This document shows, one piece after another, positions 1,191 through 24,243 of a stretch of 33,604 bases of DNA. The stretch lies in NCBI GenBank assembly GCA_020049465.1, contig JAIFKS010000168.1, positions 1-33,604 of the forward strand. The letters are read 5' to 3'. The notes beneath the pieces were generated by a model. It searched no databases, was not told the origin of the DNA, and worked only from the letters and a program-made list of their open reading frames with translations. The translations under genes and the position numbers were made by a program. The stretch's first letter is position 1. Every line of letters begins with the position of its first letter. The stretch comes from a bacterium (lineage in GTDB: Bacteria; Krumholzibacteriota; Krumholzibacteriia; LZORAL124-64-63).

Positions 1191-1456
1191 GTTGTCTCCG
1201 GCGGCTCAGACGGTGGGGGCCTGAACGAGACGATTCTGAGGCCGGTAGCCTAGGCCCAGGCCATTTGCCCACCTCATCATGCCTGAAGATTTCCCGCATG
1301 GGAAGTTGAAACCGCCAGGCTGCGCCGACCGCCACCTGGGGGCCCGCCAGCGCGCCGCCAGTTCATCCTTGCCGATGCGCGCGCCCACCGGCGATATTGC
1401 CGGCGGAAACAGACTGCATTCGTCACCGGAGAGCCGGACTTCCAGGGGGAACTGTG

Positions 1457-2749
1457 ATGATGAAATGGTCGAGAGTGTTCTTCATGGTGCTGCTCGCGGG
1501 CCTGGTGACGCTGGCACCGTCAGCCCAGGCGATCGACAAGGGCACGGCCGAGCTCGGCATCTTCGGCCGGGTTTCGTTCTTCGACCCGGCGTTCGACATC
1601 GCCGACTGGGGCGGCCCCGGCCTTCGCGCCGGCTACTTCCTGGCCAATGACCTGGCGCTCGAAGCCGACGCGTCGTTCACCAGCACCGACGGCATCATCA
1701 CCGAAGGTCTGCGTCAGGACGTGCAGGTCATGCCGTTCCACGCCCGCCTGATCTGGAATCGCCCCGTCGGCGAGCAGACCCATCTGCTGCTGGGCGCCGG
1801 CTACACGCACATCGAGTACGGCGACGACGTCAACGCTTCGGGCGACGGCGCGGGCGCCCTGATCGGATTCCGCTACCAGACGCTGGAGAACCTGTCGTTC
1901 CGCTTCGAAGCGACCGCCGACTGGTACAGCGACAACGATCTCACCGAAGAGTCGGATCCCATCGACTTCGGCGTGCAGTTCGGCTTCAGCGGCCTGTTCG
2001 GCGGCGGCCCGGGCGACCGTGACAAGGACGGCGTCACCGACGACCTGGACCTCTGCCCCGAGACGCCGCGCGGTGAAGCCGTCGACGCCAAGGGTTGCCC
2101 GCTGCCCAAGGACAGCGACGGCGACGGCATCATGGACGACGCGGACAAGTGCCCCGACACGCCGAAGGGCGACAAGGTCGACGCCCGCGGCTGCACGCTG
2201 CCCAAGGACAGCGACGGCGACGGCGTCACCGACGACAAGGACAAGTGCCCCGGCACGCCGAAGGGTGAAAAGGTCGACGCCAACGGCTGCGCCCTGCCCA
2301 AGGACAGCGACGGCGACGGCGTCACCGACGACAAGGACAAGTGCCCCGGCACCGCCGCCGGCACCAAGGTCGACGCCAACGGCTGCCCGCAGCTGTTCGA
2401 GGAGACCAAGGGCACGCTGGTTCTTGAAGGCGTGAACTTCGCGACCAACAAGGCCGATCTGGACGCCGGCGCGCACGAGGTGCTCGACCGCGTGGCGATC
2501 AGCCTGCTGGCCTATCCGGAGATCCGCGTCGAAGTGGCCGGCCACACCGACAGCAAGGGCTCCCGCGCCCTGAACGTGCGCCTGTCCCAGAAGCGCGCCG
2601 AATCGGTGCGCGACTACCTGATCGGCAAGGGCATCGGCGCCGAGCGCCTGGTCGCCAAGGGCTACGGGCCGGACAAGCCCATGGCCACGAACGACACCGA
2701 CGAAGGCCGCGCGCAGAACCGCCGCACCGAGCTGAACAAGCTGGACTGA
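1457..2749 (+). CDS. OmpA family outer-membrane protein: N-terminal beta-barrel region, four thrombospondin type-3 (TSP3, Ca-binding) repeats, C-terminal OmpA_C peptidoglycan-binding domain
   Basis: Start ATGATG at 1457 after AGGGGGA. Signal peptide MMKWSRVFFMVLLAGLVTLAPSAQA|ID. Repeats DSDGDGVTDDKDKCPGTPKGEKVDANGC. C-terminus …NFATNKADL…RVEVAGHTDSKGS…LSQKRAESVRDYL…GYGPDKPMATNDTDEGRAQNRRTEL is a canonical OmpA_C. The ORF-track start at 1397 adds a non-signal N-extension. Confidence 0.9.
   Translation: MMKWSRVFFMVLLAGLVTLAPSAQAIDKGTAELGIFGRVSFFDPAFDIADWGGPGLRAGYFLANDLALEADASFTSTDGIITEGLRQDVQVMPFHARLIWNRPVGEQTHLLLGAGYTHIEYGDDVNASGDGAGALIGFRYQTLENLSFRFEATADWYSDNDLTEESDPIDFGVQFGFSGLFGGGPGDRDKDGVTDDLDLCPETPRGEAVDAKGCPLPKDSDGDGIMDDADKCPDTPKGDKVDARGCTLPKDSDGDGVTDDKDKCPGTPKGEKVDANGCALPKDSDGDGVTDDKDKCPGTAAGTKVDANGCPQLFEETKGTLVLEGVNFATNKADLDAGAHEVLDRVAISLLAYPEIRVEVAGHTDSKGSRALNVRLSQKRAESVRDYLIGKGIGAERLVAKGYGPDKPMATNDTDEGRAQNRRTELNKLD
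2014..2397. repeat. Four tandem 96-bp coding repeats (TSP3 repeat units of the OmpA-like gene); units 3 and 4 nearly identical at DNA level
   Basis: Repeat units begin at ~2014, 2110, 2207 and 2303 (gacagcgacggcgacggc…tgccc…aaggtcgacgccaacggctgc). More than 50 nt of identical DNA is shared by units 3 and 4. Confidence 0.8.
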
Positions 2750-3089: not shown

Positions 3090-5402
3090 ATGAAAAAGAC
3101 ACTGCTTCACCTGCTGGGGCTGGCGATCGCGCTGACGCCTCTGGGTGCGTCGGCGGGGCTGGACAACAAGACCGACAGCTTCGGCGTCTACTTCGACAAC
3201 GCTGGCAACACCACCACGAAGACCGTTGGCGTGTTCACGCCGTTCCCGGTGTATCTGCTGCTCATGAACCCGACCGGCACGCTGACCGACGCGTTTGAGT
3301 GCACGGTCACCCCGACGGGTGCGCCGGTCTTTATCCTGGGCACCGACCTCGGTCCGGTCGCTCTGGACATCGATGCTTCCGCCAACGGCTTCGCCGTGGG
3401 CCGGGCGTCGCCGTACCCGATCGCCAACGACGCGATCGTGCTGGTGACCTGGAGCTTCATGGTGCAGGCGCCCACGCCGCTGGAATTCCGCATCACGCAG
3501 GCGACGATGAACTCGATCCCGGGCTCCGGCGTGCCGGTGGTCTCGGGAGGCGGCCTTCTGCGTCCGTGCCAGGTGTCGACCTGCGATGTCACGCTGCCGG
3601 TCGCGGCGGTCAATTCATCCTACGTGCCTATCATCTGCGACGACCCCCCGCTGCCGACCGACCTCCACGTCGGCGTGACGGCGACCTGCGGTGACCTTCA
3701 GGATTCCCGGGTCCTGGCCGCCACCACGGCGGTGGCCACCGACGACTACGACGGCAATCTCGACATCCCGAAACCCGCGCCGCCTCCGGGCAACTACGTC
3801 CAGGCCAGCTTCGAGCACGTCGGCTGGCCGCTCGGGCCGCGCTTCCGCGCCGACGTTCGCCGGCGCTACGATCCCCTGGCCGCATACCAGACCTGGCCGC
3901 TGATGGTGGAAACCGACCGTTCCGGCGACATCGTCCTGACGTTCGACTCGAGCCTCGCCCAGAGCGACGGCGCCCTGCTCTACCTGCGCGACCTGCAGAG
4001 CGGCCAGTTCTTCAACCTGTTCCCCGACCTGCGATTCGTGTTCACGAACAACGGTCTGCCGAACACCCATCGCTTCGAACTGCTGGTCGGCGCCGCGCCG
4101 GTGCCGCCGGCCCTGAACCCGGCCACCCGCGATCTGCCGGTCGGCTGGTCGATGGTGGGGATGCCCCTGACGCCGAACGCAGGCGCCACCGTCGGCACCC
4201 TGCTCACCGGCCCGGCGCCCGGCTACGCGTTCGTCTACGACTTCCTGCCCACGCAGGGCTACGGCCTCCGGCAAGACACGGACGCCGTATACGAAGGAGC
4301 CGGCTACTGGCTGGCCACCGACACGGCCTTCACCTGGTCGGCGCCGGGCACGCGCAACCTGGACGGCGTCACCAGAGGGCTGCACAACGGCTGGAACCTG
4401 ATCAGCTACGCGAACTGGTTCCCCGGACCGGTCGAAGGTCTCCGTGTCATCCGCTACGGCGTCACCTACGACTGGCAGACCGCCGCCCAGATGGGCCTGG
4501 TCTCTGCCGATGTCCAGTCGTTCGACCCCGCCGGCGGCAGCTATGTCGAGGTCGTGAACCTGCAGCCGTGGTACGGCTACTGGATCAACGCGCTGCAACC
4601 GGACCTGTCGTTGAAATTCTACTGGGGCAATTTCGTGCAGTTGCCCAAGCGGCTGACGACGGACAAGTCGGCGCTTGATCCCGACGACGACTCCTGGCAG
4701 TCCGACCTGACGCTGGTCGACGCCGCGGGTCAGCGGCGCACGATCACCCTGGGCATGAACACGCACGCAACGGCCGGCTTCGACGCACAGCACGACAAGC
4801 CGCAACCGCCGCAGTCGCCGGCCGGCGGACCGCTGCTGATGTTCAACCGTCCGGAATGGGAACTGGCCGCCGGCAACGACGAGAGCGTGTCGTGGACGGT
4901 CGTGCTGAGTTCCCCGAATCCGGGCCGCGCCGCGCTGACCTGGGATCCGAAGGAATGGCCGGAGGGCGTCGACTTCCAGCTCTACCTGCCGCACGAGAAC
5001 CGCGTGGCCATCATGTCGATGCGCAAGCAGACGACCTACACCACGGTGCTTGGTTCCATGGCGACGCAGGTCGTTGTCCGGACCCCCAGCTTCACGTCGA
5101 GCGTCGATGCGCCGGTGGGCACGGACTTCGGTGTGTCGGTCTCGCCGAACCCGTTCAACCCGCAGACCACCGTCGCCTTCGACCTGCCGCAGGCGGCGCG
5201 CGCCGAAGTGCGCGTCTACTCGGTGCGCGGCGAACTGGTGGCCGTGCTCGGCGGCGGCAGCTACGGCGCCGGCCGCCATCTGGAAGTGTGGCGCGGCGTC
5301 GATCGCCAGGGCCACGAGGTGCCGAGCGGTTCGTACTTCGCGCGCCTTCATGTCGACGGCAAGGCGAAGGGTCCCGTTACCAAGATGAGTCTGGTCCGGT
5401 AA
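3090..5402 (+). CDS. Large secreted protein of unknown function with a C-terminal FlgD-Ig-like / T9SS type-A (Por_Secre_tail-like) sorting domain; paralog A
   Basis: ATG at 3090 after AGGAG (7-nt spacer). Signal peptide MKKTLLHLLGLAIALTPLGASAG. C-terminus …SPNPFNPQTTVAFDLPQAARAEVRVYSVRGELVAVL…GRHLEVWRGVDRQGHEVPSGSYFARLHVDGKAKGPVTKMSLVR matches the PNPFNP…GxYFxRL…KMxLLK signature. Strongly paralogous to 6212..8524. The ORF-track start at 2916 (GTG) adds a non-signal extension. Confidence 0.85.
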   Translation: MKKTLLHLLGLAIALTPLGASAGLDNKTDSFGVYFDNAGNTTTKTVGVFTPFPVYLLLMNPTGTLTDAFECTVTPTGAPVFILGTDLGPVALDIDASANGFAVGRASPYPIANDAIVLVTWSFMVQAPTPLEFRITQATMNSIPGSGVPVVSGGGLLRPCQVSTCDVTLPVAAVNSSYVPIICDDPPLPTDLHVGVTATCGDLQDSRVLAATTAVATDDYDGNLDIPKPAPPPGNYVQASFEHVGWPLGPRFRADVRRRYDPLAAYQTWPLMVETDRSGDIVLTFDSSLAQSDGALLYLRDLQSGQFFNLFPDLRFVFTNNGLPNTHRFELLVGAAPVPPALNPATRDLPVGWSMVGMPLTPNAGATVGTLLTGPAPGYAFVYDFLPTQGYGLRQDTDAVYEGAGYWLATDTAFTWSAPGTRNLDGVTRGLHNGWNLISYANWFPGPVEGLRVIRYGVTYDWQTAAQMGLVSADVQSFDPAGGSYVEVVNLQPWYGYWINALQPDLSLKFYWGNFVQLPKRLTTDKSALDPDDDSWQSDLTLVDAAGQRRTITLGMNTHATAGFDAQHDKPQPPQSPAGGPLLMFNRPEWELAAGNDESVSWTVVLSSPNPGRAALTWDPKEWPEGVDFQLYLPHENRVAIMSMRKQTTYTTVLGSMATQVVVRTPSFTSSVDAPVGTDFGVSVSPNPFNPQTTVAFDLPQAARAEVRVYSVRGELVAVLGGGSYGAGRHLEVWRGVDRQGHEVPSGSYFARLHVDGKAKGPVTKMSLVR

Positions 5403-5438
5403 TCGCCGGCCCGACATCGCTTTCATCACGGTTCGCGA

Positions 5439-5471
5439 GCGCCGCCCGTCCCCTAGCGGGGCGGGCGGCGC
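5439..5471 (+). terminator. Strong GC hairpin (putative terminator) after paralog A
   Basis: gcgccgcccg-t-cccc-tagc-gggg-cgggcggcgc forms a 14-bp stem with one bulge and a 4-nt loop. The trailing U-tract is weak (g-UU-gac-UU). The hairpin directly abuts a -35 hexamer. Confidence 0.5.
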
Positions 5472-5472
5472 G

Positions 5473-5501
5473 TTGACTTCGCCCGATCATTGTGGTCTAA
5501 T
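5473..5501 (+). promoter_or_regulatory. Sigma70-like promoter for the small secreted-protein gene
   Basis: -35 TTGACT (5473..5478), 17-nt spacer, -10 TCTAAT (5496..5501). Located ~60 nt upstream of ATG 5563. Confidence 0.45.
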
Positions 5502-5562
5502 CCCCGCACAACTTCGGACCGCCATCCTAGGGCGACATCTCTTGCGATCAGGATTGCTCATC

Positions 5563-6138
5563 ATGCGCGCGACATGCAGGATGTTGATATTGGCTCTCGT
5601 TTGCACCGCACCCCTGGCTCTGGCGCCGCAGGCGTCGGCGCAGGAGCTCACCTTCGAATTCCAGGTGACCATCGGCGGCGTCGCCTCCGACTGGCACGCG
5701 TTCGGCCTGCGCGAAGACGCGCAGCAGGGCATCGACGGCTACGACCTGCCCGAACCGCCGGCCGCGCCGGGCTCCACCTTCCGCTCGTACCTGTCGATGT
5801 TCGAGCCGCTAACGGGACTGCCGAACCGCTGGCTCCAGGACTACCGCCCCGTCAACAGCATCACGCTCGACCGCGTCGAGCTCTGGCAGTTGTCCATCGA
5901 ATCGCCGGCCGTGGGCGCGACCTGCCGCATCGATCTGCGCGCGCGCGATCCCATCGGCATCCCCTACGATCTCTACTTCTTCGGTCCCGGCACCTACTAC
6001 CGGTCGCTGCAGGCGCCGGCCTCGATCAGCTTTCCGATCGACGCGACGTGGATGGTCCAGTTCTTCGAGCTGCGCCTGGACGAGAGCGTCGGCACCAGCG
6101 CCACCACCTGGGGAGGTGTGAAGAGCCTGTTCCGGTAG
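5563..6138 (+). CDS. Small secreted protein (~191 aa) of unknown function sharing the 'D(G)YDLPEPPAAPG' module with the flanking large paralogs
   Basis: ATG at 5563 gives MRATCRMLILALVCTAPLALAPQASAQ|E, a typical signal peptide. Protein-like composition and high GC3. The ORF-track start at 5473 lies inside the promoter and hairpin region. Confidence 0.6.
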   Translation: MRATCRMLILALVCTAPLALAPQASAQELTFEFQVTIGGVASDWHAFGLREDAQQGIDGYDLPEPPAAPGSTFRSYLSMFEPLTGLPNRWLQDYRPVNSITLDRVELWQLSIESPAVGATCRIDLRARDPIGIPYDLYFFGPGTYYRSLQAPASISFPIDATWMVQFFELRLDESVGTSATTWGGVKSLFR

Positions 6139-6211
6139 TTTTTCGAATTCTGCTCGTGTCCGGGAGAGTGCGCCCCGATCGGGGCTGTCCGCACATTGCA
6201 ACGAGGAGGCC

Positions 6212-8524
6212 GTGATGCGCCGAAGGTTCATGTTGATCGCGATGACGTGCGCTGTGTTTCTGTCGGTGGGAGGCTGGGCGATGGCCCAGGACAAGGATAC
6301 CGGCCTGGTGAACACGCCGGTTTCGGTGATGATCACCGGTGAAGGCGAGACGATCATCGCCAGCACATCCTCCGGGGCCCTCGACGGCTACGACGGCACG
6401 GATGTCGTCGACGGCAGCTACAATCTGACGATTCCCCACACCGATTGGCCCGGATCACCGGCAACGAAGTACTCCCGCGACAACCGCGCCGTCTACGACC
6501 CGACCGTCGCGATGAAGACCTGGGTCTTCACGGCCACAGCGGCGGATCCCGTCACAAACGGGTACCAGGTCGACCTCTCGTTCACGGCCAGCTTCACGGC
6601 CGACTCCGGAATCGGCCTGCTGCTCCACGACCGCGCCACCGGCAGCACGATCGACCTGCGCGCCGCCGGCATGCAATACGGCTATTATGCCTCCGGAACG
6701 CGGACCTTCGACCTGACGATCGGCAACCCGACGCCGCCGACGACGCCCGAGTACACGATCGACATCGCCACGACCTGCGGCCTCTACTACGATCCCCTGA
6801 CCCGCGCCGCCACGGACAACGAGGCCACCGACGGTTTCGACGGCGCCCTCGAAACGCCCGAACCCACGCCGCCGCCCGGCAACTACCTTTGCACGAGCAT
6901 GGAGCACGCCGACTGGCCCCTGGGCCCGCGCTTCAGCGCTGATGTGCGGGCGGCGTTCGACCCCACGGTCGCATCCGGGTTCTGGCCGCTGATGGTGGAA
7001 ACCGACCAGTCCGGCTACGTCGTGCTGAACTTCACGCCCAATTTCGCGGCGAACGCCGGGATCGGGCTCCAGTTGCGCGACCTGCAGACGGGTCTCGTCC
7101 TGGACCTGTTCCCGTCCTTGTCCTACACCTACGTGAACCACGGCGTCGCCACGGTCCGCCGCTTCGAGCTGAGCCTCGGCGCCGTGCAACCGCCGGCGTT
7201 GAATCCCACCAGTCGCCCGCTGCCGGCGGGGTGGTCGATGGTGGGCCTGCCGTTGGCGCCTCCCGCGGCCGCCAGCACCGTCGGTGACGTGCTGCTCGAA
7301 CCGTCGCCGGGTTATGCCTACGCCTTCACCTACGGCCGCTACGGCGGTTATCAGTCGGTGGCGGCGACCGCGACCGCTTCTCCCGGCATCGGGTACTGGC
7401 TGGGCACGTCGACCGGATTCAACTGGACGATGACCGGCACCCGTTTGCTGGGCGGCGTCACGGTGCCCCTGACCAACGGCTGGAACCTGATCGGCAACGC
7501 CAACTGGTTCCCGGCCCCGTTCGAGGGCCTGGTCGTCCTGCTCAATGGCGTCTCCTACGACTGGCTGACCGCCGTGCAGTTCGGCCTGGTCTCGGCCGAC
7601 GTGCAGAGCTACGACGCGGCGAGCGGCGCCTACTTCGACGCCGTCGATCTCCAGCCCTGGCAGGCCTACTGGATCAACGGGCTGACCGACAATCTCATCC
7701 TGCGCTTCAAGTGGGAGAACTTCCAGCAGATGCCCGCGCGCCTGGCCGCGCCGCCGGCGACCGACAAGGCGGTCACCAGCGACTGGCATACCGATCTGGT
7801 GCTGACCGACGCGCTGGAAAAGTCGCGCGCCGTCACCTTCGGCGTCGCGTCGCTGGCCACCGCGGCCTTCGACCCGCTGTACGACCGCCCCATGCCGCCC
7901 GCCTCTCCGGACGGCGGTCCGTCGCTGTCGTTCCAGCATCCCGAATGGGCGCTGGCCGCCGGCAACGCGTTCACGCGCGACCTGGTCGGACCGGCTGACG
8001 AGCCCGTGAGCTGGACCGTGGCGATGACCCAGCCCAAGGCCGGCGCCGCCACGCTCAGCTGGGATCCGGCGAACTGGCCGGAAGGCGTCGACTACCAGCT
8101 GTACTTCCCCCACGAGAACCGGGTGGTCGTGATGTCGATGCGTCATCAGACCAGCCTTACGGTCGATGTGGGACCGCAACCGCTGACCGTCGTCGTGCGC
8201 ACGCCGGACCTGACCTCCGACGTGGGCGATCTGCCGATGGTCGGCGACTTCAGCCTGTCCGCGCAGCCGAACCCGTTCAACCCGATCACCACGGTGTCGT
8301 TCAACCTGCCGCAGGCGGGACGCGCCGAGATCCGCATCTACTCGCTGCGGGGCGAACTAGTGGGCGTGCTCGGCGGGCACGACTATGAGGCCGGACGCCA
8401 TCAGGAAGTGTGGAACGGCCGCGACCGTCAGGGCCGCGAGGTGCCCAGCGGCTCGTACTTCGGCCGACTGCATGTCGACGGCGAGGTGCAGGGCCCGGTC
8501 GTCCGCATGAGTCTGGTGCGGTGA
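6212..8524 (+). CDS. Large secreted protein with a C-terminal FlgD-Ig-like / T9SS type-A sorting domain; paralog B (contains an internal duplication of the N-proximal module)
   Basis: GAGGAGG at 6203..6209; start GTG 6212 or ATG 6215. Signal peptide MRRRFMLIAMTCAVFLSVGGWAMAQ. Module ETPEPTPPPGNYLCTSMEHADWPLGPRFSADVRAAFDP…WPLMVETDQSG matches paralog A. C-terminus …QPNPFNPITTVSFNLPQAGRAEIRIYSLRGELVGVL…GSYFGRLHVDGEVQGPVVRMSLVR. Confidence 0.85.
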   Translation: MMRRRFMLIAMTCAVFLSVGGWAMAQDKDTGLVNTPVSVMITGEGETIIASTSSGALDGYDGTDVVDGSYNLTIPHTDWPGSPATKYSRDNRAVYDPTVAMKTWVFTATAADPVTNGYQVDLSFTASFTADSGIGLLLHDRATGSTIDLRAAGMQYGYYASGTRTFDLTIGNPTPPTTPEYTIDIATTCGLYYDPLTRAATDNEATDGFDGALETPEPTPPPGNYLCTSMEHADWPLGPRFSADVRAAFDPTVASGFWPLMVETDQSGYVVLNFTPNFAANAGIGLQLRDLQTGLVLDLFPSLSYTYVNHGVATVRRFELSLGAVQPPALNPTSRPLPAGWSMVGLPLAPPAAASTVGDVLLEPSPGYAYAFTYGRYGGYQSVAATATASPGIGYWLGTSTGFNWTMTGTRLLGGVTVPLTNGWNLIGNANWFPAPFEGLVVLLNGVSYDWLTAVQFGLVSADVQSYDAASGAYFDAVDLQPWQAYWINGLTDNLILRFKWENFQQMPARLAAPPATDKAVTSDWHTDLVLTDALEKSRAVTFGVASLATAAFDPLYDRPMPPASPDGGPSLSFQHPEWALAAGNAFTRDLVGPADEPVSWTVAMTQPKAGAATLSWDPANWPEGVDYQLYFPHENRVVVMSMRHQTSLTVDVGPQPLTVVVRTPDLTSDVGDLPMVGDFSLSAQPNPFNPITTVSFNLPQAGRAEIRIYSLRGELVGVLGGHDYEAGRHQEVWNGRDRQGREVPSGSYFGRLHVDGEVQGPVVRMSLVR

Positions 8525-10512
8525 CCTCGGCCCGACGGAGTCTGCTTCTGCTGTCTTTCGTGCTGCCCGTCGCCCTCTGGACGGGCAGCACTTCCTACGA
8601 ACCCGCCAAGCTCCTGCTCTGGGCGCTGACCGCGGCGGCCTGGGCCGCGCTGCTCGCGGCGGCCGTCCTGCGTCGCCGCACGCTGACGATCCCCGCGCGC
8701 GGCCTTCTTCTGGCCGCCGGCTCCCTGCTGCTGGTGATGCTGCCCGGCCTGTGGCGCGCCACCGCGCCCGCGCTGGTCGCCCGCGCGATGATCTGGTCGG
8801 CGCTGTGGTGGCTGACGGTGATGACGGCCGCGCTGGCGTTGCGCGAGAGCCGCGATCTTCGGCGACTGCTCTGGTGCGCCACCGGCGGCACGGCCGTGGT
8901 GTGCCTGTACGGCCTGCTGCAGATCGCGCAGATCCTGCCCGGTCCGGGCCACTGGAGCGTGCCGGCCGGCATCAGCACTCTCGGCAACGAGAACTACGTG
9001 GCCGAACTGGCGGCGCTGTGGCTGCTGCCGTCCTTGTTGCTCGTCGCGGGCGCCACGGGAACGGCGAGACGCGCGGCCGCTGCAGCCGTGGTCCTGCTGC
9101 TGCTGGGCATGCTCGCCTTCTCGTCCGCCGCCGCCGCGCGCATCGCCGCGGTGGCCGCCGCCGCTTTCGCGCTGGCCGGCTGGCTGCTGATGCGTTCGCG
9201 CTGGAGCCGTCACCTGCCGGTCGCGCTCGGCGCGCTGGTGCTTGCCGCCGTCGTGACTTCCGGGGCGATGGTGGCGCAGGTGCTGGCCCCCGCGCGCGAT
9301 CCCCTTGCTCCCACATCCTGGACCGCGCGCGTGTTCGCGGCCAATCACGGCGACATCCGCCGCACCGACTGGCTGGTGGCGCGCGAGCAGTGGCGCCGGT
9401 CGCCCCTGTTCGGCCGCGGCGCCGGCAACTACGGGGTCGACTGGCCTGGTACCCGCGCCGCCTTGACCAGTTCCGGCGCGTTCACCGGCCTGGCCGAACG
9501 CGCGCCCGTCGCCACGCGCGCGCACCACGAATACCTGCAACTGGCCGCTGAACTGGGCTGGGCCGGTGTGGTCTGGCTGGGCCTCGTCCTGGCGGCGGGC
9601 GCTCTGGCCTGGAACCGTCGCTGGCGCGCGGCCGCCGCCGACAGCGATCGCCACACGATGCTGCTGCTCACCGCGGGACTGGCGGCGGCCGCCGTCACCG
9701 GGCTGGTCAGCTTTCCGGCGCACCTGCCGGCCTCGGGTTTCGCTCTCGCGCTGCTGGTGGGCGCGCTGGCCTCGCCGGCGTGTGCGCCGGGCGCCGCGAC
9801 GGCCCGCACCACGCGGCTGCCGCGGTGGACCGCGGTTGCGCCCGCATTCGCCGCGCTCGCCTTGATGGTCGGCGCCGTGCGCGCGTTCGAAGGCGACCTC
9901 CTGGTCGCGCGCGGTTCGCGTCTGTTCGTGGAGGGATCATTGGATGCGTCGGTGGCGCCGCTGCGCGCGGGCATCGCGCGCCTGCCCTGGCCGAACGAAG
10001 CGCGCCTGTACCTCGGTCTGGCGCTGGCCGCCGCCGGCAAGCCGGACGAGGCCGCGCCCATGCTGGAGGCCAGCCTGCGCGACCGCCCTTCGTTCGAAGC
10101 CCTGCTCGGCCTCGCGGAACTGCACGTGGACGGCCGCCGCTTCGACCGCGCCGAGGAACCGCTCGTGGTGGTCGAAAGCTGTCGACCGGCGCTGACCTTC
10201 CAGCAGCAGGCGGGGTACCTGCGCGCCCTGGCGGCGCTGCGCGGCGAAAAATGGGACGAGGCGCGCATGCGGTTCACGACGCTGGTCGACAACGATCCGG
10301 GCGACCACCGCAGCTGGCTCGGGCTGGGCTACTTCCACGCGCTGCGGGGCGAGCCGCTCATGGCCGCCGACGCCTACCGCCAGGCGGTGGCGGCGATCGA
10401 GAAGAAGATCGCGGCGCCGGCCCCGGACACGGCCGCCGCGCGTGGGCAGACAACGCGACTGCGGCAGCAGCTGGCGACGGCCCGGCGGGCCCTGGCTTCG
10501 GTCACGGACTGA
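8521..10512 (+). CDS. O-antigen ligase / O-antigen polymerase family (Wzy_C) polytopic membrane protein with a C-terminal TPR-repeat domain
   Basis: GTG at 8521 overlaps the TGA of paralog B (GTGA), i.e. translational coupling. The N-terminus is hydrophobic from that start. It has >8 predicted TM helices. Motifs GRGAGNYGV and RAHHEYLQLAAELGWAG match the GxGxGxF…HxxxLxxxxExGxxG signature of the WaaL/PglL/Wzy_C family. The C-terminal ~200 aa are TPR-like (…YLGLALAAAGKPDEAAPMLEASL…GLGYFHALRGEPLMAADAYRQAV). The ORF-track start at 8410 would overlap 115 nt of the upstream gene. Confidence 0.75.
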   Translation: MTSARRSLLLLSFVLPVALWTGSTSYEPAKLLLWALTAAAWAALLAAAVLRRRTLTIPARGLLLAAGSLLLVMLPGLWRATAPALVARAMIWSALWWLTVMTAALALRESRDLRRLLWCATGGTAVVCLYGLLQIAQILPGPGHWSVPAGISTLGNENYVAELAALWLLPSLLLVAGATGTARRAAAAAVVLLLLGMLAFSSAAAARIAAVAAAAFALAGWLLMRSRWSRHLPVALGALVLAAVVTSGAMVAQVLAPARDPLAPTSWTARVFAANHGDIRRTDWLVAREQWRRSPLFGRGAGNYGVDWPGTRAALTSSGAFTGLAERAPVATRAHHEYLQLAAELGWAGVVWLGLVLAAGALAWNRRWRAAAADSDRHTMLLLTAGLAAAAVTGLVSFPAHLPASGFALALLVGALASPACAPGAATARTTRLPRWTAVAPAFAALALMVGAVRAFEGDLLVARGSRLFVEGSLDASVAPLRAGIARLPWPNEARLYLGLALAAAGKPDEAAPMLEASLRDRPSFEALLGLAELHVDGRRFDRAEEPLVVVESCRPALTFQQQAGYLRALAALRGEKWDEARMRFTTLVDNDPGDHRSWLGLGYFHALRGEPLMAADAYRQAVAAIEKKIAAPAPDTAAARGQTTRLRQQLATARRALASVTD

Positions 10513-14508: not shown

Positions 14509-15060
14509 CTACAGGTTGCCCGGGATCAGCACCGTGTCGATGACGTGGATGACGCCGTTGCTCGCCACGACATCGGCCTTGATGACCTTCGCGCCCGACA
14601 CCTTCACGCCGTCGGTGGCGTCGATCGTCAGCTTGGTGCCGTTCAACGAGTCGGCGCTCTTGATCTTCACGACATCGGCGGCGCGCACATCGCCGGCCAC
14701 CACGTGGTGCAGGAGCACCTTCTTCAACTGCTCGGGGTTGGCCAGGAGCTTCTCGACGGTGCCTTCCGGCAGCTTGGCGAACGCCTCGTCCGTCGGCGCG
14801 AACACCGTGAACGGACCCTTCTCCGTCAGTGTCGCCTGCAGGCCGGCGGCCTTCACGGCGGCGGTCAGCGTTTTGAAGCCGGCGGCTTCGGCCAGCGGGA
14901 AGATGGCCATCGGAGCGGCAGCAGCCGCGGCCGGCTTCGCGGCGGGATGCTCCTTCGCCTTCGCGGTCGGATGCTCGCTGCCGGCGGCGATGGTCAACTG
15001 CGGGGTCACGACCAGGGCGACCAGGGCCGCCGCGATCAGGGAGCGGGTGTGCTTCATCAT
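14509..15060 (-). CDS. Fasciclin (FAS1) domain protein, secreted
   Basis: ATGATG at 15060/15057. Signal peptide MMKHTRSLIAAALVALVVTPQLTIAAG. FAS1 motifs TVFAPTDEAF…LLHHVV…TVLIP. The ORF-track start at 15174 lies in an AT-rich promoter island. Confidence 0.85.
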   Translation of the reverse strand: MMKHTRSLIAAALVALVVTPQLTIAAGSEHPTAKAKEHPAAKPAAAAAAPMAIFPLAEAAGFKTLTAAVKAAGLQATLTEKGPFTVFAPTDEAFAKLPEGTVEKLLANPEQLKKVLLHHVVAGDVRAADVVKIKSADSLNGTKLTIDATDGVKVSGAKVIKADVVASNGVIHVIDTVLIPGNL

Positions 15061-15130
15061 GTCTGTATCCGTCCTTGGGCTGGGTGTTGTCTTTGGTGTC
15101 GTCTTCTTCGTCGCTCTTTCCACATCACCC

Positions 15131-15159
15131 ACGATAGCATCGTATATATTTTGTGTCAA
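15131..15159 (-). promoter_or_regulatory. Sigma70-like promoter (minus strand) for the fasciclin gene inside an AT-rich island
   Basis: Minus-strand reading: -35 TTGACA (plus 15154..15159), 17-nt spacer, -10 TATCGT (plus 15131..15136). ~70 nt upstream of ATG 15060. Confidence 0.4.
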
Positions 15160-15218
15160 GATATAAATGTACATTATTTATACACAAACAGGGGTAAACG
15201 AGATTTTTGGCTAACTCA

Positions 15219-15229
15219 TTGTTTGATAA
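15219..15229. promoter_or_regulatory. Shared 11-mer TTGTTTGATAA (minus-strand TTATCAAACAA), copy 1, ~160 nt upstream of the fasciclin ATG
   Basis: An identical 11-mer lies at 21380..21390, ~165 nt upstream of the histidine-kinase operon ATG. Both copies are in AT-rich islands, each followed 70-80 nt later by a -35-like TTGACA/TTGAAA. The flanks contain AACTCATT / AATGAGTT, which are reverse complements of each other. Confidence 0.3.
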
Positions 15230-16297
15230 TTAGTTAAGGATTTCGTTCAGCGCCTGGGCAAAGTCCGCTGACTTCGCGATCAGGCGTCCATCGATCGCCG
15301 CAAGCGTCTCCGCGTAGCTGGACGCCGCCGCGCCGCCCACCAGAAGGCCCACTTCCGGGGCCAGCAGGCGCCGCAGCGTCTCCAGTTGTCCGGCCACGAC
15401 GGCATCGCCGGCGGGATAGATCAGGCTCACGAAAACGGCGCGCGCCTGCCGCTGGGCCGCCGCCGCCGCGATTTCCTCGGCGGGCAGATCGGCGCCCAGG
15501 TAGAGAACGGCCCAGCCCGCCTCGAGCCCGAGCGAAGCGGCCATCAGGGCGCCCAGTTCGTGCCGGTTGCGCAGCGGCGTGGCCACGACCAGCAGAGGGG
15601 CGCCGGAATCGGGCACCTGGCTCGCGTTCGCGGCGGCCAGGAAGGAATGGACGATGGTCGAGGCCATGTGCTCGTGCGCGATGCGCAACGTTCCCTGGCG
15701 CCACAATTCGCCGACCCGGGTCAGCAGCGGTGCGAGCAGCTCCTGCCTGAGCACCGGCCGGCTCAGATGCAGGGTCGCCTGCGAAAGCACGTTTTCGAGG
15801 CCCGAGGCATCGAGCGCCGCCACCGCCACCAGGGCCTGCTCCAGCAGCATGTCGGGTGACAGGACCGCTCTTTCGGGCAGGGGACGGCCGGTACGATCCG
15901 GACGCTCCTCACCCGCCGAGCGGCCGGCCGTCGGCATCGCCCCCGGCCCCAGCGCTTCCACCAGCGCCCGCAACTCTACCAGCGGCTGATTCGCCACTTC
16001 GCCGATGCGGTGGTCCGCGGCCGTCAACACGCGCAGCAGGGAAAGCCGTTCGATGTCGAGCTCGGAATAGCGCCGACGCCCCGTCTCCGTGCGCCCGGGC
16101 AGCACCACGCCGTACCGCCGCTCCCAGGCCCGCAACACGAGCTGGCTCAATCCCGTGCGCCGGGCCACCACGGCAATGCTGTGGCGCGGCGTCGTGTCGG
16201 GTGCGGTGGCGGTCGGGATGTGGGCTCCGGGATTCACGGCGGGGACTTTCGTTGAGGGCGGGGCTGGTGACGAACATTCTGGCGTGATGTTAATCAA
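15230..16297 (-). CDS. CarH/LitR-like light-responsive transcriptional regulator: MerR-family HTH + cobalamin (B12)-binding domain
   Basis: HTH HSIAVVARRTGLSQLVLRAWERRYGVVLPGRTETGRRRYSELDIERLSLLRVL aligns with CarH (…[31 protein letters not shown]…). C-terminal B12-binding motifs NRHELG (DxHxxG-type), SLIY and LLVGGAA. The ORF-track start is TTG at 16297; GTG at 16246 or 16237 are alternatives. The stop at 15230 is firm. Confidence 0.85.
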   Translation of the reverse strand: MINITPECSSPAPPSTKVPAVNPGAHIPTATAPDTTPRHSIAVVARRTGLSQLVLRAWERRYGVVLPGRTETGRRRYSELDIERLSLLRVLTAADHRIGEVANQPLVELRALVEALGPGAMPTAGRSAGEERPDRTGRPLPERAVLSPDMLLEQALVAVAALDASGLENVLSQATLHLSRPVLRQELLAPLLTRVGELWRQGTLRIAHEHMASTIVHSFLAAANASQVPDSGAPLLVVATPLRNRHELGALMAASLGLEAGWAVLYLGADLPAEEIAAAAAQRQARAVFVSLIYPAGDAVVAGQLETLRRLLAPEVGLLVGGAAASSYAETLAAIDGRLIAKSADFAQALNEILN

Positions 16298-16303
16298 TTG
16301 TAT

Positions 16304-16325
16304 AGTATTTGTCCATCAAAATACT
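16304..16325. promoter_or_regulatory. Imperfect inverted repeat AGTATTTG-tccat-CAAAATACT in the AT-rich divergent CarH-like / SRPBCC promoter region (candidate operator)
   Basis: Seen directly in the sequence. It sits between the divergently transcribed regulator and SRPBCC genes. Confidence 0.3.
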
Positions 16326-16851
16326 GCCGGAATCCGACGCGGGGGTCTGCCCGACCCGCGCCCCGGCTCCTCCGATCCGGGAGCTGCCCGTGACCCCCCA
16401 TCTGCTGACCAGCGAACAGTTCGTCCCCCGCCCCCGCGACGAGGTGTTCGCCTTCTTTGCCAAACCGGAGAACCTCGGGACCATCACCCCGCCCTGGCTG
16501 GACTTCCGCATCCTGACGCCGTCACCGGTGCCGATGGAGCGCGGCGCCCTGATCGACTATGTCATCCGGGTGGGACCGGCGCCCACGCGCTGGCGCACGC
16601 TGATCACGCGGCACGAACCGCCGCACGCCTTCGTCGACGAGCAACTGCAGGGCCCCTACAGCTTCTGGCACCACACGCACACCTTCGAGGAGACGGACGG
16701 CGGCACGATCATCGGCGACCGCATCCTCTATGTGCTGCCGTTCGGTGTCCTCGGCGTGATCGTCGAACGGCTGTTCATCCGGCGCCAGCTGCAGGCCATC
16801 TTCGCCCACCGGCGCCGCGTCATCGCCGAACGATTCGGCGGCCAGACCTGA
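16309..16851 (+). CDS. SRPBCC (START/Bet v1/polyketide-cyclase-like) ligand-binding family protein
   Basis: …EQFVPRPRDEVFAFFAKPENLGTITPPWLDFRILTP…YVIRVGPAPTRWRTLITRHEPPHAFVDEQLQGPYSFWHHTHTFEE…RILYVLPFGVLG is a typical SRPBCC fold pattern. The start is ATG 16309, or GTG 16390 preceded by GGGAG. Confidence 0.7.
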   Translation: MSIKILPESDAGVCPTRAPAPPIRELPVTPHLLTSEQFVPRPRDEVFAFFAKPENLGTITPPWLDFRILTPSPVPMERGALIDYVIRVGPAPTRWRTLITRHEPPHAFVDEQLQGPYSFWHHTHTFEETDGGTIIGDRILYVLPFGVLGVIVERLFIRRQLQAIFAHRRRVIAERFGGQT

Positions 16852-16861
16852 TCCGGCCGGA

Positions 16862-18460
16862 CTACGCCATCGCGCAACCAAGGCACGGTCGCTCGACGCC
16901 CTGGTCCGGATTGTCGCGCACCACGGCGGCGAATTCGTCGCTGTGAGCCAGGAATACGTCCAGAAGCTCGGGATCGAAGTGGCGGCCGCGGCCCTCCCGC
17001 ATGGTGGCGAAGACTTCGTCCGCCGGTCGCGCTTCACGGTACACGCGCCGGCTGCTCAAGGCGTCGAACACGTCGACGATGGCGGTGATGCGGCCCTCCA
17101 GCGAGATCTCCTCGCCGGTCAGACCACGCGGATAGCCGGTGCCGTCCCAGCGCTCGTGATGCTGAAGGGCGATGCGCGCGGCGACGCGCATGATCCGCTG
17201 CTCCGACTTGCAGAGGATCCCGTGGCCCAGCGCGGCGTGGTTCCGCATCACGGCGAACTCGTCGGGTGTCAGCCGGCCCGGCTTGTTCAGGATCCGATCG
17301 GGGATGCCGACCTTGCCCACATCGTGCATCGGCGCCGCCATCCGGATCACCGCCGCCGTCTCGGCATCCACCCCCGCGTGCAGCGCCAGCATCCGCGCCA
17401 TCTCGCCGACGCGCAGCACGTGGTTGGCTGTTTCCAGGCTGCGGGCCTCCACCAGTTCGCTCAGGGTGCGGATCATCTCGCGCTGGCTCTCGATGATCTC
17501 GCGCGTCAGGCTCGCGTTCGCGTAGGCCAGCGTCACACTGGCGAAGTAGACGCGCATCAGGTCGCGCTCCAGGCGGGGCAGTGTCCCGACGCCCACCAGC
17601 ACGAACAGCAGTTCGTCGGCGCCCGCATGTCCGGCCGGGCAGCGCCCGCAGCAGACGTCATCACGCCACACGATCGATTTTTCGGCGGCCGACCGCGCGA
17701 GCATTTCGCGCACACCGTCGTCGAGCATCCCTTCGACGGGAGTGCCCACGCGGTCGGCCCAGGGCCCCGTGCCGGCAGCCAGCACAAAGCCCTTTTGCCG
17801 CCTCCGTGCGGCAAATCCCTGGGGCGCCGGCCCGGCGCCCCGCCGGGCGATCGCCAGCAACTGCGCCAGGACCTCCCCGGCGAATTCCCTCTGTCTGCCG
17901 CCGTGCAGCAGGGCGCCGCTGGCGTCGAGCACGTGCTGCAGGCTGCGCCGGCTCTGCTCCAGGGCGCGGATGTCGCGCCACGCGCGCAGCGCGCTGGTCA
18001 CCGACGTGCACAGCTTGTCGGCCGTCAGTTCCGTCTTGGCGCGGTAGTCGTTGATGTCGTAGCGCATCACCACGTCGCGTTCGGGCGCCTGACCCGGCTG
18101 TCCCGTGCGCAGGATGATCCGCACGTTGTGGTTCCCCAGCCCCTCCCGCACATGGTGCGCCAGGCGCAGGCCGGCGTCGTCGCTCTCCATCACCACATCC
18201 AGCAGGATCACCGCGATGTCCGGATGGGACGCCAGCACCACGCGCGCCTCGGCCGCCGAATAGGCCGCCAGCAGGCATACCGGACGCCCTTCGAAGCGGA
18301 AGCGGCCCAGCACGAGACGGGTCACGTGATGCACGTCCTCCTCGTCGTCGACCACCAGCAGCTTCCAGCAACTGTGGTCGGCGCAGTTGGCCATGGCCGG
18401 CTCGTCGGCGAAGCGGATCTCGTCGCCCGTCCCGAGGATGTTATCCATCGCTTCCGGCAT
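16862..18460 (-). CDS. Response regulator (REC) fused to an HD-GYP c-di-GMP phosphodiesterase domain
   Basis: REC: KLLVVDDEEDVHHVTRLVL…VILLDVVMESDDAGLRL. HD-GYP: …HAGVDAETAAVIRMAAPMHDVGKVGIPDRILNKPGRLT…HHERWDGTGYPRGL. ATG 18460 is preceded by GGAGG (6-nt spacer). It overlaps the upstream kinase gene by 20 nt. Confidence 0.9.
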   Translation of the reverse strand: MPEAMDNILGTGDEIRFADEPAMANCADHSCWKLLVVDDEEDVHHVTRLVLGRFRFEGRPVCLLAAYSAAEARVVLASHPDIAVILLDVVMESDDAGLRLAHHVREGLGNHNVRIILRTGQPGQAPERDVVMRYDINDYRAKTELTADKLCTSVTSALRAWRDIRALEQSRRSLQHVLDASGALLHGGRQREFAGEVLAQLLAIARRGAGPAPQGFAARRRQKGFVLAAGTGPWADRVGTPVEGMLDDGVREMLARSAAEKSIVWRDDVCCGRCPAGHAGADELLFVLVGVGTLPRLERDLMRVYFASVTLAYANASLTREIIESQREMIRTLSELVEARSLETANHVLRVGEMARMLALHAGVDAETAAVIRMAAPMHDVGKVGIPDRILNKPGRLTPDEFAVMRNHAALGHGILCKSEQRIMRVAARIALQHHERWDGTGYPRGLTGEEISLEGRITAIVDVFDALSSRRVYREARPADEVFATMREGRGRHFDPELLDVFLAHSDEFAAVVRDNPDQGVERPCLGCAMA

Positions 18461-22989: not shown

Positions 22990-24243
22990 ATGTCCACTCG
23001 TTTTGCGCGGTCGATCCTGATCATGATCATGGCCGGCTGTGTGCTGCTGGTGATGGCGTCGTGTTCCGAGAACATACCGACCTCACCCGACGCGGAGGCG
23101 GCGAAACGCGCGGGCGGTGTCGCCCGGCATGACAACCCGCCTCCGGCCGACCAGGCGACCGTCACCATCGACGGCACACCGGTTGTCTTCTGGCCCTACA
23201 CCGGCACCAGCTTCGACGGAACGCCCGTCGATCCCATCAACCTCGTGTTCGCCGGCGAGGCCGATCCCCTGCAGATCCGCGCCGCGCTGATGGCGCTCAG
23301 CGGCGACCGCTCCGCGTTCGGCATCCCGCCCATCCCACCGTTCAACGCGCCATGGCAGGACGCCATCGGCGGCGACGTGCAGACCACCTGTGCCGTCGGC
23401 GGCGACGGCTGGGTCGGCAGCGTCGTCCAGTTGACGCTCGGCGAATTCGGTCCGCTGCGGCTCCACCTGCGCCTGTTCCGCACCGGCCAGGAGGCCGGCG
23501 GCGGCCCGGTCACGCTGGGCGGAGCCCACTTCGAGCTCAACATTCCGGGCACGGCCGACCACCAGGTGCTGAGCTGGGAACTGGCCGAGCAGATCGTCAT
23601 GGCTGACCTCGTCCGCAGCGGCCTGCTGGGGGCGGCGCCGGCGCCGACCGGGTTGATCAACGCCGCGCCGACGTTTCGCACGATCATGAAGGAGGTCTAC
23701 AACGGCCTGCCGCCCGCACTGGTCGGCCTGATCGGCGGACCGGCGCAGCCCGTGCTGGCGGACGTCCCCTTGCCCTCGGACGGCCAGGGCAAGCTGTTGC
23801 GTCTGGCCTTCGCCGCGCCGCTGGAACCGGGCACCTGGGACCGGATGGTGACGGTCAACTATGACCAACTGGTGCCGCGTCCGTTCTGCAGCGAAGGGCC
23901 CGGCGACTTCCTGCTCGTGACGGGGCCGGTGGAATTCACCGCGCGCGGCGAACTGTCGCCGGACGGATCGTACACGAGCCACAATGCCTTCGTCGGCATC
24001 CTGCGGGCGGTGCCCGTGGACCTGTCCACCGGCACACCCGTGCCCACGGGTCCCGCGTTCCCGGCCCGCGTCTCGGGACACAGCAGCGTCACGCTCGATG
24101 CCTGGAATGCCCGCGTCACCATGCAGGACCGCCGGTTCACGCGCGAGCCCGACGGGGTGCAGGTGAAGCAGATCTGGATGAACATCCCGCAGCAGGGCCT
24201 GAAGACCGTCCGCACCAGGCTCAGCTGCATCGACGAGAGCTAG
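22990..24243 (+). CDS. Lipoprotein of unknown function (417 aa)
   Basis: ATG 22990 after GAGGGTG. Signal peptide plus lipobox MSTRFARSILIMIMAGCVLLVMASC|SEN. Globular, protein-like composition. Confidence 0.75.
   Translation: MSTRFARSILIMIMAGCVLLVMASCSENIPTSPDAEAAKRAGGVARHDNPPPADQATVTIDGTPVVFWPYTGTSFDGTPVDPINLVFAGEADPLQIRAALMALSGDRSAFGIPPIPPFNAPWQDAIGGDVQTTCAVGGDGWVGSVVQLTLGEFGPLRLHLRLFRTGQEAGGGPVTLGGAHFELNIPGTADHQVLSWELAEQIVMADLVRSGLLGAAPAPTGLINAAPTFRTIMKEVYNGLPPALVGLIGGPAQPVLADVPLPSDGQGKLLRLAFAAPLEPGTWDRMVTVNYDQLVPRPFCSEGPGDFLLVTGPVEFTARGELSPDGSYTSHNAFVGILRAVPVDLSTGTPVPTGPAFPARVSGHSSVTLDAWNARVTMQDRRFTREPDGVQVKQIWMNIPQQGLKTVRTRLSCIDES

Follow-up and report, generated by a model that had tools for sequence, protein, structure and literature searches.

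A Wzy_C–tetratricopeptide repeat membrane protein encoded directly behind a secreted-protein gene in Krumholzibacteriota: a candidate substrate-dedicated O-oligosaccharyltransferase

Genes and proteins of the cassette

We analysed a stretch of DNA of 33,604 nt (33.6 kb), referred to here as the window, whose closest homologues carrying a name are metagenome-assembled genomes (MAGs) of Krumholzibacteriota. The cassette under study, at 3090-10512, encodes two paralogous secreted proteins, A and B, with a small secreted protein between them and, overlapping the end of the B gene, a polytopic membrane protein that joins a Wzy_C domain to a tetratricopeptide repeat (TPR) domain and that we call the ligase. 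The ligase gene adjoins a B-type gene in all of its close relatives, and we tentatively propose that its product is a protein O-oligosaccharyltransferase (O-OTase) dedicated to B. The G+C content of the window is 66-75%, and G+C by codon position picks out one gene string on the + strand, composed of an OmpA-family gene followed by the genes for A, the small protein, B and the ligase:

3090..5402, + strand: protein A, 770 aa (gene call)
5563..6138, + strand: small secreted protein, 191 aa (open reading frame (ORF) open from 5473)
6212..8524, + strand: protein B, 770 aa (gene call)
8521..10512, + strand: ligase, 663 aa, Wzy_C plus TPR membrane protein
8521..8524, + strand: GTGA overlap of the ligase start codon (GTG) with the B stop codon (TGA), read in the DNA sequence
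1397..2749, + strand: OmpA-family outer-membrane protein, 450 aa (Pfam matches to an OMP beta-barrel, TSP3 repeats and an OmpA domain), given as context only

The GTGA overlap, already reported in an earlier sequence-only reading of this DNA, is present and indicates translational coupling of B and the ligase.

Readable Sec signal peptides are found in A, B and the small protein, and searches of Pfam and NCBIfam revealed no catalytic domain in any of the three. The sequence-only reading had described the two paralogues as lacking a recognisable catalytic domain, which holds, and as being ~800 aa long, which is too high for both. A and B are 55% identical over ~590 residues, from residue ~190/194 of A to its C-terminal end (770). 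Profile-profile comparison identified a module of ~140 aa with the motif A-T-D-G-x-D...D-x-P-x-P-P-x-P, of which B has three copies, A has two (together with a distinct N-terminal domain) and the small protein has one. Modules 1 and 2 of B match each other with 99.9% probability and modules 2 and 3 with 98.5%, so the internal duplication noted earlier is real, but a third, more divergent copy, also in A, had been overlooked. The small protein matches B module 2 with an hhalign probability of 82.6%, rising in local alignment to 92.6% for module 2 and 94.7% for module 3, in agreement with the earlier view that it shares the module of A and B. The domains of A and B, all on the + strand, are as follows:

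A residues 1-23: signal peptide, Sec-type (from sequence)
A residues ~24-190, 3159-3659: N-terminal beta domain
A residues 194-335, 3669-4094: first module copy
4095-4682: middle beta domain of A
A residues ~532-663, 4683-5078: second module copy, followed by a linker
A residues 680-770, 5127-5399: C-terminal domain (CTD) of FlgD_ig type, resembling type IX secretion system (T9SS) CTDs (FlgD_ig 32.1 bits)
B residues 1-25: signal peptide
B residues 36-175, 6317-6736: module 1
B residues 178-326, 6743-7189: module 2
B residues 330-520, 7199-7771: middle beta domain
B residues 521-666, 7772-8209: module 3
8210-8242: disordered linker of B, with conserved T664 and S669
B residues 678-770, 8243-8521: FlgD_ig/T9SS-like CTD

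The sole above-threshold match of A and B is to FlgD_ig over the last ~90 residues (32.1 bits for A and 30.6 for B, against a gathering score (GA) of 27). Scores for Por_Secre_tail (PF18962; 14.5 bits for A and 15.5 for B, cutoff 27) and for TIGR04183 (17.7 bits for A, cutoff 23) are below threshold. The CTD of A and B is of the FlgD_ig type and does not reach the curated T9SS type A thresholds; the earlier label of a Por_Secre_tail/FlgD-Ig domain stands in its second half only.

We used AlphaFold2 (AF2) to model B from 43 homologues. The model has a mean predicted local distance difference test score (pLDDT) of 88.4 and is entirely beta. Fold searches with the body of this model returned only generic immunoglobulin (Ig)/fibronectin type III (FN3) matches, whereas the CTD matches FlgD and the CTDs of PorU, PorZ, RemZ (in the SprA translocon complex) and mirolase. 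No fold was assigned to the B middle domain (residues 330-520) or to the N-terminal domain of A. Both proteins consist of strings of Ig/FN3-like sandwiches and are all-beta. They combine two features of T9SS cargo, namely an N-terminal Sec signal and an Ig-like beta-sandwich CTD such as is seen in known T9SS CTDs. Most members of the A/B family are ~930 aa long and have both the N-terminal domain of A and the three modules of B. One B-type protein (L007, 11966-13942, - strand; other loci are likewise given by their L numbers) is 658 aa long and lacks the whole middle domain (B residues ~330-520), retaining the modules and CTD.

The same CTD is also carried in Krumholzibacteriota contigs by subtilase, C25 peptidase, malectin, BNR, beta-helix and DM13 proteins, and two Krumholzibacteriia CTDs of this kind pass TIGR04183 (38.9 and 30.4, cutoff 23). 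At L021 (3138-8315), a 1726-aa protein of the gingipain/PorU family combines Propeptide_C25, Peptidase_C25 and CarboxypepD_reg domains with a CTD that passes TIGR04183; its score against the PorU equivalog is 72, far below the cutoff of 420. A PorV gene beside this C25 peptidase, which would serve as a proxy for a T9SS, was not found on the Krumholzibacteriia contig L021. When GTDB was scanned with the A/B profile, the CTD pattern PNPFNP... dominated the results, and the 80 loci listed included no true A/B orthologue and no relative of the ligase. Among the matches listed, this CTD type occurs in Cloacimonadota, Ignavibacteriota, Calditrichota, Fibrobacterota, Latescibacterota, Eisenbacteria, Marinimicrobia, KSB1 and Bacteroidota. 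The literature searched contained no paper linking Krumholzibacteriota and T9SS. We take Krumholzibacteriota to be a member of the Fibrobacterota–Chlorobiota–Bacteroidota (FCB) superphylum, a placement not stated in its NCBI lineage. Reviews assign the T9SS to this superphylum (PMC11205867, PMC12398890). Putative export of A and B by a T9SS-like route has indirect support from the fold of their CTD, from the variety of Krumholzibacteriota proteins bearing it, from the two such CTDs that pass TIGR04183 and from the spread of this CTD type over FCB-type phyla.

The ligase gene encodes a membrane domain followed by a TPR domain:

8521..9894, + strand: membrane domain, 13 predicted transmembrane (TM) helices, N-terminus inside
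9088-9573, + strand: Wzy_C match, residues 190-351 (Pfam)
9898..10509, + strand: TPR domain of ~5 repeats, residues 460-663, after TM13 (TPR_16, TPR_19)

Wzy_C (PF04932) scores 38.7 bits (GA 31.7) and is matched by all 24 relatives as well, and the repeats score 47.1 bits for TPR_16 (GA 32.7) and 33.2 bits for TPR_19, bearing out the Wzy_C–TPR fusion that had been recognised from the letters. A 24-sequence profile of the ligase finds the O-antigen ligase WaaL (7tpg) with an E value of 5.3e-9; a six-sequence profile of the membrane domain found no match in the PDB. The AF2 model of the ligase has a predicted template modelling score (pTM) of 0.86, with the TPR region forming helical repeats at pLDDT >90, and its top Foldseek match in the PDB is again WaaL (7tpg_B, probability 1.0, TM score 0.58). 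The ligase is a member of the Wzy_C/O-antigen-ligase superfamily with a WaaL-like fold. Hydropathy and the positive-inside rule assign residues 255-336 and 394-402 to periplasmic loops. The TPR domain (residues 460-663) is likewise predicted to be periplasmic because it lies downstream of TM13 in a protein whose N-terminus is inside.

The large periplasmic loop (residues 255-336) contains invariant R280/R281, P295, G298, G300 and H335 (codon 9523-9525), and the second periplasmic loop contains the invariant motif F398-P-x-H401-x-P403. Across 24 ligase sequences, down to 24% identity, R280, P295, G298, G300, H335, H401 and P403 are invariant. In the general O-OTase PglL the listed residues are R298, P313, G316, G318 and H349, with G316 and G318 stated to be conserved among PglL enzymes but not WaaL (Schulz et al., PMC3643930). 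The ligase has the same R-to-P spacing of 15 and the same PxxGxG pattern as PglL; the equivalence of its residues to E. coli WaaL R288/H338 and PglL R298/H349 is one of motif spacing, not of alignment (PMC3643930). The TPR domain could be imagined as a periplasmic chaperone or docking scaffold that passes B to the secretion machinery, with Wzy_C only as a membrane anchor. TPR domains do mediate protein-protein contacts, and translational coupling suggests stoichiometric co-production, but the invariance of R280, H335, PxxGxG and H401 over 24 relatives down to 24% identity argues for a probable retained enzymatic activity, and we regard a purely non-catalytic role as highly improbable. One relative (L003) is called as a 945-aa protein with an additional Arg-rich tail of 280 aa (17891-18751) in which no domain was found. 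We discounted this tail as probably a read-through artefact in which the stop codon has been lost.

WaaL is the best match of the ligase in both structure and sequence among solved structures, which raises the alternative of a WaaL-like glycolipid ligase. Such an enzyme would transfer a polymer to lipid A-core or another lipid, making an anchor to which a PorU-type sortase attaches A and B, and its place next to B would follow from B being the principal protein so anchored. The T9SS-like CTDs of A and B agree with this alternative, as do the C25-family peptidases with the same CTD in Krumholzibacteriia and the precedent of Porphyromonas gingivalis, in which T9SS cargo is joined to A-type lipopolysaccharide (A-LPS) by PorU (PMC8729774). 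WaaL of Cupriavidus metallidurans (PDB 7TPG) shares with the ligase the Wzy_C core fold and the periplasmic Arg/His loop. However, it has 12 TM helices and no periplasmic TPR, is encoded in lipopolysaccharide (LPS) loci and uses lipid A-core as its acceptor, whereas the ligase has 13 predicted TM helices and a 200-aa TPR domain, with no LPS genes around it.

Ligase neighbourhoods among relatives

Orthologues of the ligase at 35-53% identity adjoin a B-type gene at every one of nine loci. In eight the two genes are co-oriented, and in the ninth (L007) they converge with their stop codons 3 nt apart. A 4-nt ATGA or GTGA overlap is present at seven (the window, L002, L003, L006, L093, L094 and L125). 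Co-conservation of the ligase with the paralogues, on which the sequence-only reading had staked its proposal, is thus borne out for the B-type gene. The gene orders at the nine loci are:

Window: OmpA, A, small, B, ligase
L003: OmpA, A, small, B, ligase
L006: OmpA, B, ligase
L002: small, B, ligase, A
L093: B, ligase, A/B-type protein
L008: small, B, ligase
L094: small, B, ligase
L125: small, B, ligase
L007: ligase convergent on the B-type gene, which the small gene precedes

The genes flanking these loci fall into at least four unrelated contexts. Because the flanks differ between loci, the B–ligase adjacency has survived rearrangements, and it holds down to 35-37% identity for the ligase and ~44% for B. 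None of the nine loci contains a glycosyltransferase, flippase, sugar-nucleotide or LPS core gene, and in no case does the ligase lie in an LPS or O-antigen cluster, the setting that would have spoken against the earlier proposal. This absence also bears on the glycolipid-ligase alternative set out above, as waaL genes normally lie in core or LPS loci. Furthermore, some A/B loci have no ligase at the same syntenic position, and a general maker of anchors would need no coupling to one cargo gene when the CTD cargo of Krumholzibacteriota is so diverse. On balance, we consider the glycolipid ligase unlikely.

The OmpA-family gene lies directly 5' of the cassette in the window, L003, L006, L005 and a 75-kb contig from the Joint Genome Institute (JGI). 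Close relatives share this synteny, and any functional link is putative. The slot between the OmpA-family gene and a GNAT/NUDIX or fasciclin/MerR-B12 block varies among these five loci, holding A, small, B and ligase, or B and ligase, or small and B, or A and small. In the JGI contig the flanks match those of the window and the ligase is missing from the same slot. Within otherwise conserved synteny, the slot has the character of a variable surface-protein island. The ligase is present or absent precisely at the 3' end of B (OmpA ... B [ligase] GNAT), which is what an optional modifier of B would be expected to show. In a more distant lineage, in which the small protein is 33% identical, the small gene again pairs with a gene for a ~750-aa CTD protein and no ligase is present. 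Because the pair recurs without the ligase, the small and large genes appear to form the more ancient unit, to which one subclade has added the ligase.

We extended the analysis to the wider family with a metagenome profile scan, which returned 103 relatives of the ligase, and examined the neighbourhoods of 80 of these loci. Only the three closest are B-linked. The other 77, which resemble the window ligase in architecture and are 24-34% identical to it over the full length, are not beside CTD proteins. The earlier idea that a TPR-bearing ligase is in itself unusual therefore has to be dropped. In 53 of the 77 loci, as well as in a Bipolaricaulota MAG, the gene directly upstream of the ligase homologue encodes a geranylgeranyl-reductase-like (GGR-like) flavin adenine dinucleotide (FAD) protein, whose ORF ends 50-400 nt before the ligase homologue (loci among L095-L168; further pairs lie at L089 6781-10100 and L090 2-3351). 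These pairs span at least three divergence groups, and in one group the synteny reads Patatin, EamA, S-adenosylhomocysteine (AdoHcy) hydrolase, S41 protease, GGR-like, Wzy_C-TPR, SecA, HrcA, GrpE, DnaK. The GGR-linked homologues thus follow a flavoprotein gene in housekeeping neighbourhoods with no B-type or CTD gene nearby, and what is specific to the cassette is the capture of the ligase behind the B gene. The pairing hints at a possible link between reduced polyprenol carriers and the ligase family. No paper treating a geranylgeranyl reductase together with an O-antigen ligase was found in the literature searched. A flavoprotein near the L002 cassette was considered as a remnant of a GGR–ligase pair and rejected, as it has no similarity to the GGR-like protein.

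The abundance of this family among housekeeping genes (GGR-like, SecA, DnaK) suggests another explanation, in which the ligase is a general envelope enzyme like its GGR-linked relatives, be it a Wzy-type polymerase or an O-OTase or ligase of general function, whose place after B arose by accident and was fixed in one lineage. The B-linked cases do all fall in one subclade, and we found no sequon or covarying site. Set against this, the adjacency is kept down to 35-37% ligase and ~44% B identity and over at least four flanking contexts, including one inversion (L007) and reshuffled orders (L002, L093), the 4-nt overlap recurs in seven of nine loci, and the ligase is gained or lost exactly at the 3' end of B. 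An accidental neighbour therefore seems to us a doubtful account of the locus.

A candidate O-oligosaccharyltransferase for B

Wzy_C-type protein O-glycosylation is well worked out for the pilins of Proteobacteria and for a few Gram-positive S-layers. In our favoured reading, to which we give a probability of roughly 0.4, the ligase is a substrate-dedicated protein O-OTase, analogous to the TfpO, PglS and TfpM enzymes encoded by pilin genes or to WsfB for S-layers. The 663-aa protein would be a polyprenyl-diphosphate-glycan-dependent transferase of the Wzy_C (WaaL/PglL) class, drawn from a general role in the envelope into modifying B; as relatives of B, A and the small protein would probably be modified by the same enzyme. 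The nearest known parallel is the division between PglL, which is general, and the pilin-dedicated TfpO, PglS and TfpM, encoded beside their substrates (PMC3643930, PMC12645811). We regard the gene anatomy, the membership of the Wzy_C fold, the conserved residues of the catalytic loop and the strict ligase–B adjacency with coupling as established. From the predicted periplasmic TPR domain and the absence of an LPS context we infer that the acceptor would be a protein rather than lipid A-core; the identity of B as the substrate and the position of the acceptor site are likewise inferred.

The proposed pathway would have four steps. A, B and the small protein would cross the inner membrane via Sec. 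In the periplasm, the TPR domain of the ligase would hold either the folded beta-sandwich protein or its flexible segments containing Pro, Ser and Thr, with the modules' DxPxPPxxP loops and, ahead of the CTD, the conserved RTPDxTS linker as candidates. The Arg/His loop would then move a pre-assembled glycan en bloc from its lipid carrier to Ser or Thr, and the glycoprotein would finally leave by a T9SS-like route via its CTD and join the surface coat. Speculatively, the glycan could be accepted by T664 and S669 of the pre-CTD linker and by T206 and T550, which lie in the module motif. That the ligase passes a lipid-linked glycan to B is a prediction, and the present data fit glycosylation of the protein and its anchoring alike.

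The closest parallels to the gene arrangement are TfpO/PilO, TfpM and PglS of Pseudomonas, Acinetobacter and Moraxella, which like the ligase are polytopic Wzy_C membrane enzymes with a conserved essential His, and which are encoded outside LPS loci while their glycans are made elsewhere (PMC9829042, PMC3643930, PMC12645811). Each is encoded immediately beside, and co-oriented with, a single secreted substrate, as the ligase is with B. Dedicated O-OTases are typically encoded beside the substrate gene, and 21 of 31 PglL homologues adjoin pilin genes outside LPS loci (PMC3643930, PMC12645811). The ligase gene shows the same arrangement, adjoining and co-oriented with its presumed substrate gene outside LPS and glycan loci. 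The systems differ in that the substrates of TfpO, TfpM and PglS are type IV pilins, whereas the candidate substrate here is a multi-beta-sandwich protein of 770-930 aa with a T9SS-like CTD. TfpO and TfpM, unlike the ligase, lack a TPR/Wzy_C_2 region, and the phylum is a different one.

In domain architecture the ligase is closer to PglL, the general O-OTase of Neisseria, and WsfB, the S-layer O-OTase of Paenibacillus alvei, both of which are described as Wzy_C followed by a C-terminal TPR (PMC2943079), or TPR/Wzy_C_2, region that lies on the periplasmic or exterior side (PMC2943079, PMC12645811). PglL also has the same R...PxxGxG...H spacing (PMC3643930), and WsfB resembles the proposed enzyme in modifying an abundant surface-layer protein. 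However, PglL is general and not linked to its substrates, and its PglL_A motif is undetected in the ligase, while WsfB lies inside an S-layer glycan biosynthesis cluster and the ligase has no flanking glycan genes.

On the substrate side, TfsA and TfsB of Tannerella forsythia are, like A and B, large paralogous non-enzymatic surface proteins with T9SS CTDs encoded by two adjacent genes, and heavy O-glycosylation in the periplasm precedes their export (PMC4175972, PMC8729774). They have no detectable sequence relation to A and B, and they use the Bacteroidota sequon D(S/T)(A/I/L/V/M/T), which is absent from B and not conserved in the A/B family. Their O-OTase is described as unidentified and is not encoded beside them (PMC6120980). 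More generally, T9SS cargo and S-layer proteins of FCB-type phyla carry heavy glycosylation, for which the transferase was stated to be still unidentified in 2018 and 2022 (PMC6120980, PMC8729774).

Several observations weigh against a dedicated O-OTase. Wzy_C alone cannot tell O-OTases from WaaL ligases or polymerases, and Wzy_C_2 together with PglL_A is used as the marker of the PglL/PglS class (PMC12645811). In the window ligase the PglL_A motif (PF15864) has no match at E <= 1, and the 25 families matched most frequently among the 24 relatives do not include it (a further 22 matched families exist). Wzy_C_2 (PF11846) has no match in the window ligase either; in favour of the O-OTase reading, 10 of the 24 relatives match it at E <= 1, and two of these exceed its GA of 28.5, namely P0070 (30.9; B-linked, L008) and P0073 (30.1). 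The Bacteroidota sequon D(S/T)(A/I/L/V/M/T) occurs at no site in B and one in A, and no sequon is conserved across the 43 homologues, so the suggested likeness to O-glycosylation in Bacteroidota fails at the level of the sequon. The TPR fusion appears to be common and ancestral in the Wzy_C-TPR family and, because that wider family has no obvious protein substrate, is unlikely to have evolved for B. The ligase is missing from three of the nine A/B loci first examined (L001, L005 and the JGI contig) and is therefore an accessory of such loci. All nine B-linked loci belong to one lineage or subclade, such that the linkage may partly reflect shared descent. Three of these caveats weigh most, namely that the TPR fusion is ancestral, that PglL_A is not matched and that no sequon is present.

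The dedicated glycosylation or anchoring step proposed by the sequence-only reading accordingly keeps its support from linkage, architecture and precedent, and loses that from the sequon, the rarity of the TPR fusion and a universal presence at A/B loci. The predicted novelty is a Wzy_C-type transferase beside its presumed substrate, with a new substrate class in a new phylum. A ligase coupled to one family of CTD surface proteins is a compact and testable predicted enzyme-substrate pair and, if the prediction is true, offers a handle on how FCB-type bacteria O-glycosylate their secreted proteins. If it fails, what is left is a locus of variable surface proteins that neighbours the gene of an envelope glycan enzyme.

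The small tagged protein and the flanking genes

The small protein consists of a signal peptide and a single module (motif FGLRxDA..G.D..D.PEPP..P ... LPNRWxxDxRP), has no CTD, and ends in an invariant C-terminal tag, TWGGVKSLFR-COOH (6109-6135). Its family comprises 84 clusters at 50% identity, mostly stand-alone proteins of ~190 aa, and the tag is kept in all relatives down to ~20% identity with the approximate consensus (V)x(T/V)Exx(S/T)WGx[IV]Kx[LM][YF][RK]-COOH. The same tag ends unrelated signal-peptide proteins from Fibrobacteraceae, Krumholzibacteriota and unclassified contigs, and outside the window it was located at these positions:

L008: ~16359
L023: ~1824
L041: ~2602 and ~3604
L047: ~10282
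L049: ~4639
L091 and L092: several

A regular expression for the tag, run on a six-frame translation of 1.24 Mb, gave 13 matches, all 13 exactly at a stop codon. A looser expression, run on 0.88 Mb of other loci, gave only 8 matches, every one of them 1-8 residues from a stop and in related clusters. The last six residues of the tag resemble the end of the A/B CTD (TKMSLVR), and no Pfam or NCBIfam model matched the tag-bearing small protein. Judged from its sequence pattern, the tag may be a previously undescribed sorting or assembly signal. The ~140-aa beta module, the ~190-aa tagged protein family and the pairing of GGR-like and Wzy_C-TPR genes are without a curated family or published description in the databases and literature searched.

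A broader interpretation would make the cassette a self-contained unit by which a lineage sister to Bacteroidota builds a glycosylated coat on its surface, comprising a new beta-sandwich module family exported through a T9SS-type CTD, a 190-aa partner protein whose tag (WGx[IV]KxL[YF]R-COOH) would act in sorting or assembly, and the first O-OTase dedicated to T9SS-type cargo; we hold this composite claim to be improbable as a whole.

At two loci of a more distant lineage (L091 2670-13683 and L092 1118-13683), several tagged proteins of ~190-210 aa alternate with FlgD_ig-CTD proteins, among them a 1489-aa CARDB protein, a protein of 310-438 aa and an A-type protein of 740-775 aa. Some of the small proteins there begin with a Cys-rich domain (CICxD...) instead of the module. 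A radical S-adenosylmethionine (SAM) gene, a small Cys-rich ORF and an extracytoplasmic function (ECF) sigma factor lie just downstream, and no ligase is present. At L001 (9658-9927) the small-protein gene has lost an internal part, and its 89-aa product keeps only residues 1-58 and 159-191; this locus has no ligase either, and insertion sequence (IS) elements lie a few kb away.

Domain searches of the 33.6-kb window found no T9SS core gene, glycosyltransferase, flippase or LPS gene, tRNA and Rfam scans of it gave no match, and a promoter and terminator scan returned counts at chance level. On the opposite strand downstream of the ligase are genes for GNAT, NUDIX and signalling proteins and a MacAB-type pump. 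Three ORFs in the window are supported by codon bias and have no Pfam match:

22990-24243, + strand: 417 aa
27570-28349, - strand: 259 aa
28504-29181, + strand: 225 aa

A further block (14509-16297, - strand, and 16309-16851, + strand) encodes a fasciclin-domain protein, a MerR/B12-binding (CarH-like) regulator and a polyketide-cyclase/SRPBCC protein, and is syntenic in several relatives (L003, L005 and L006).

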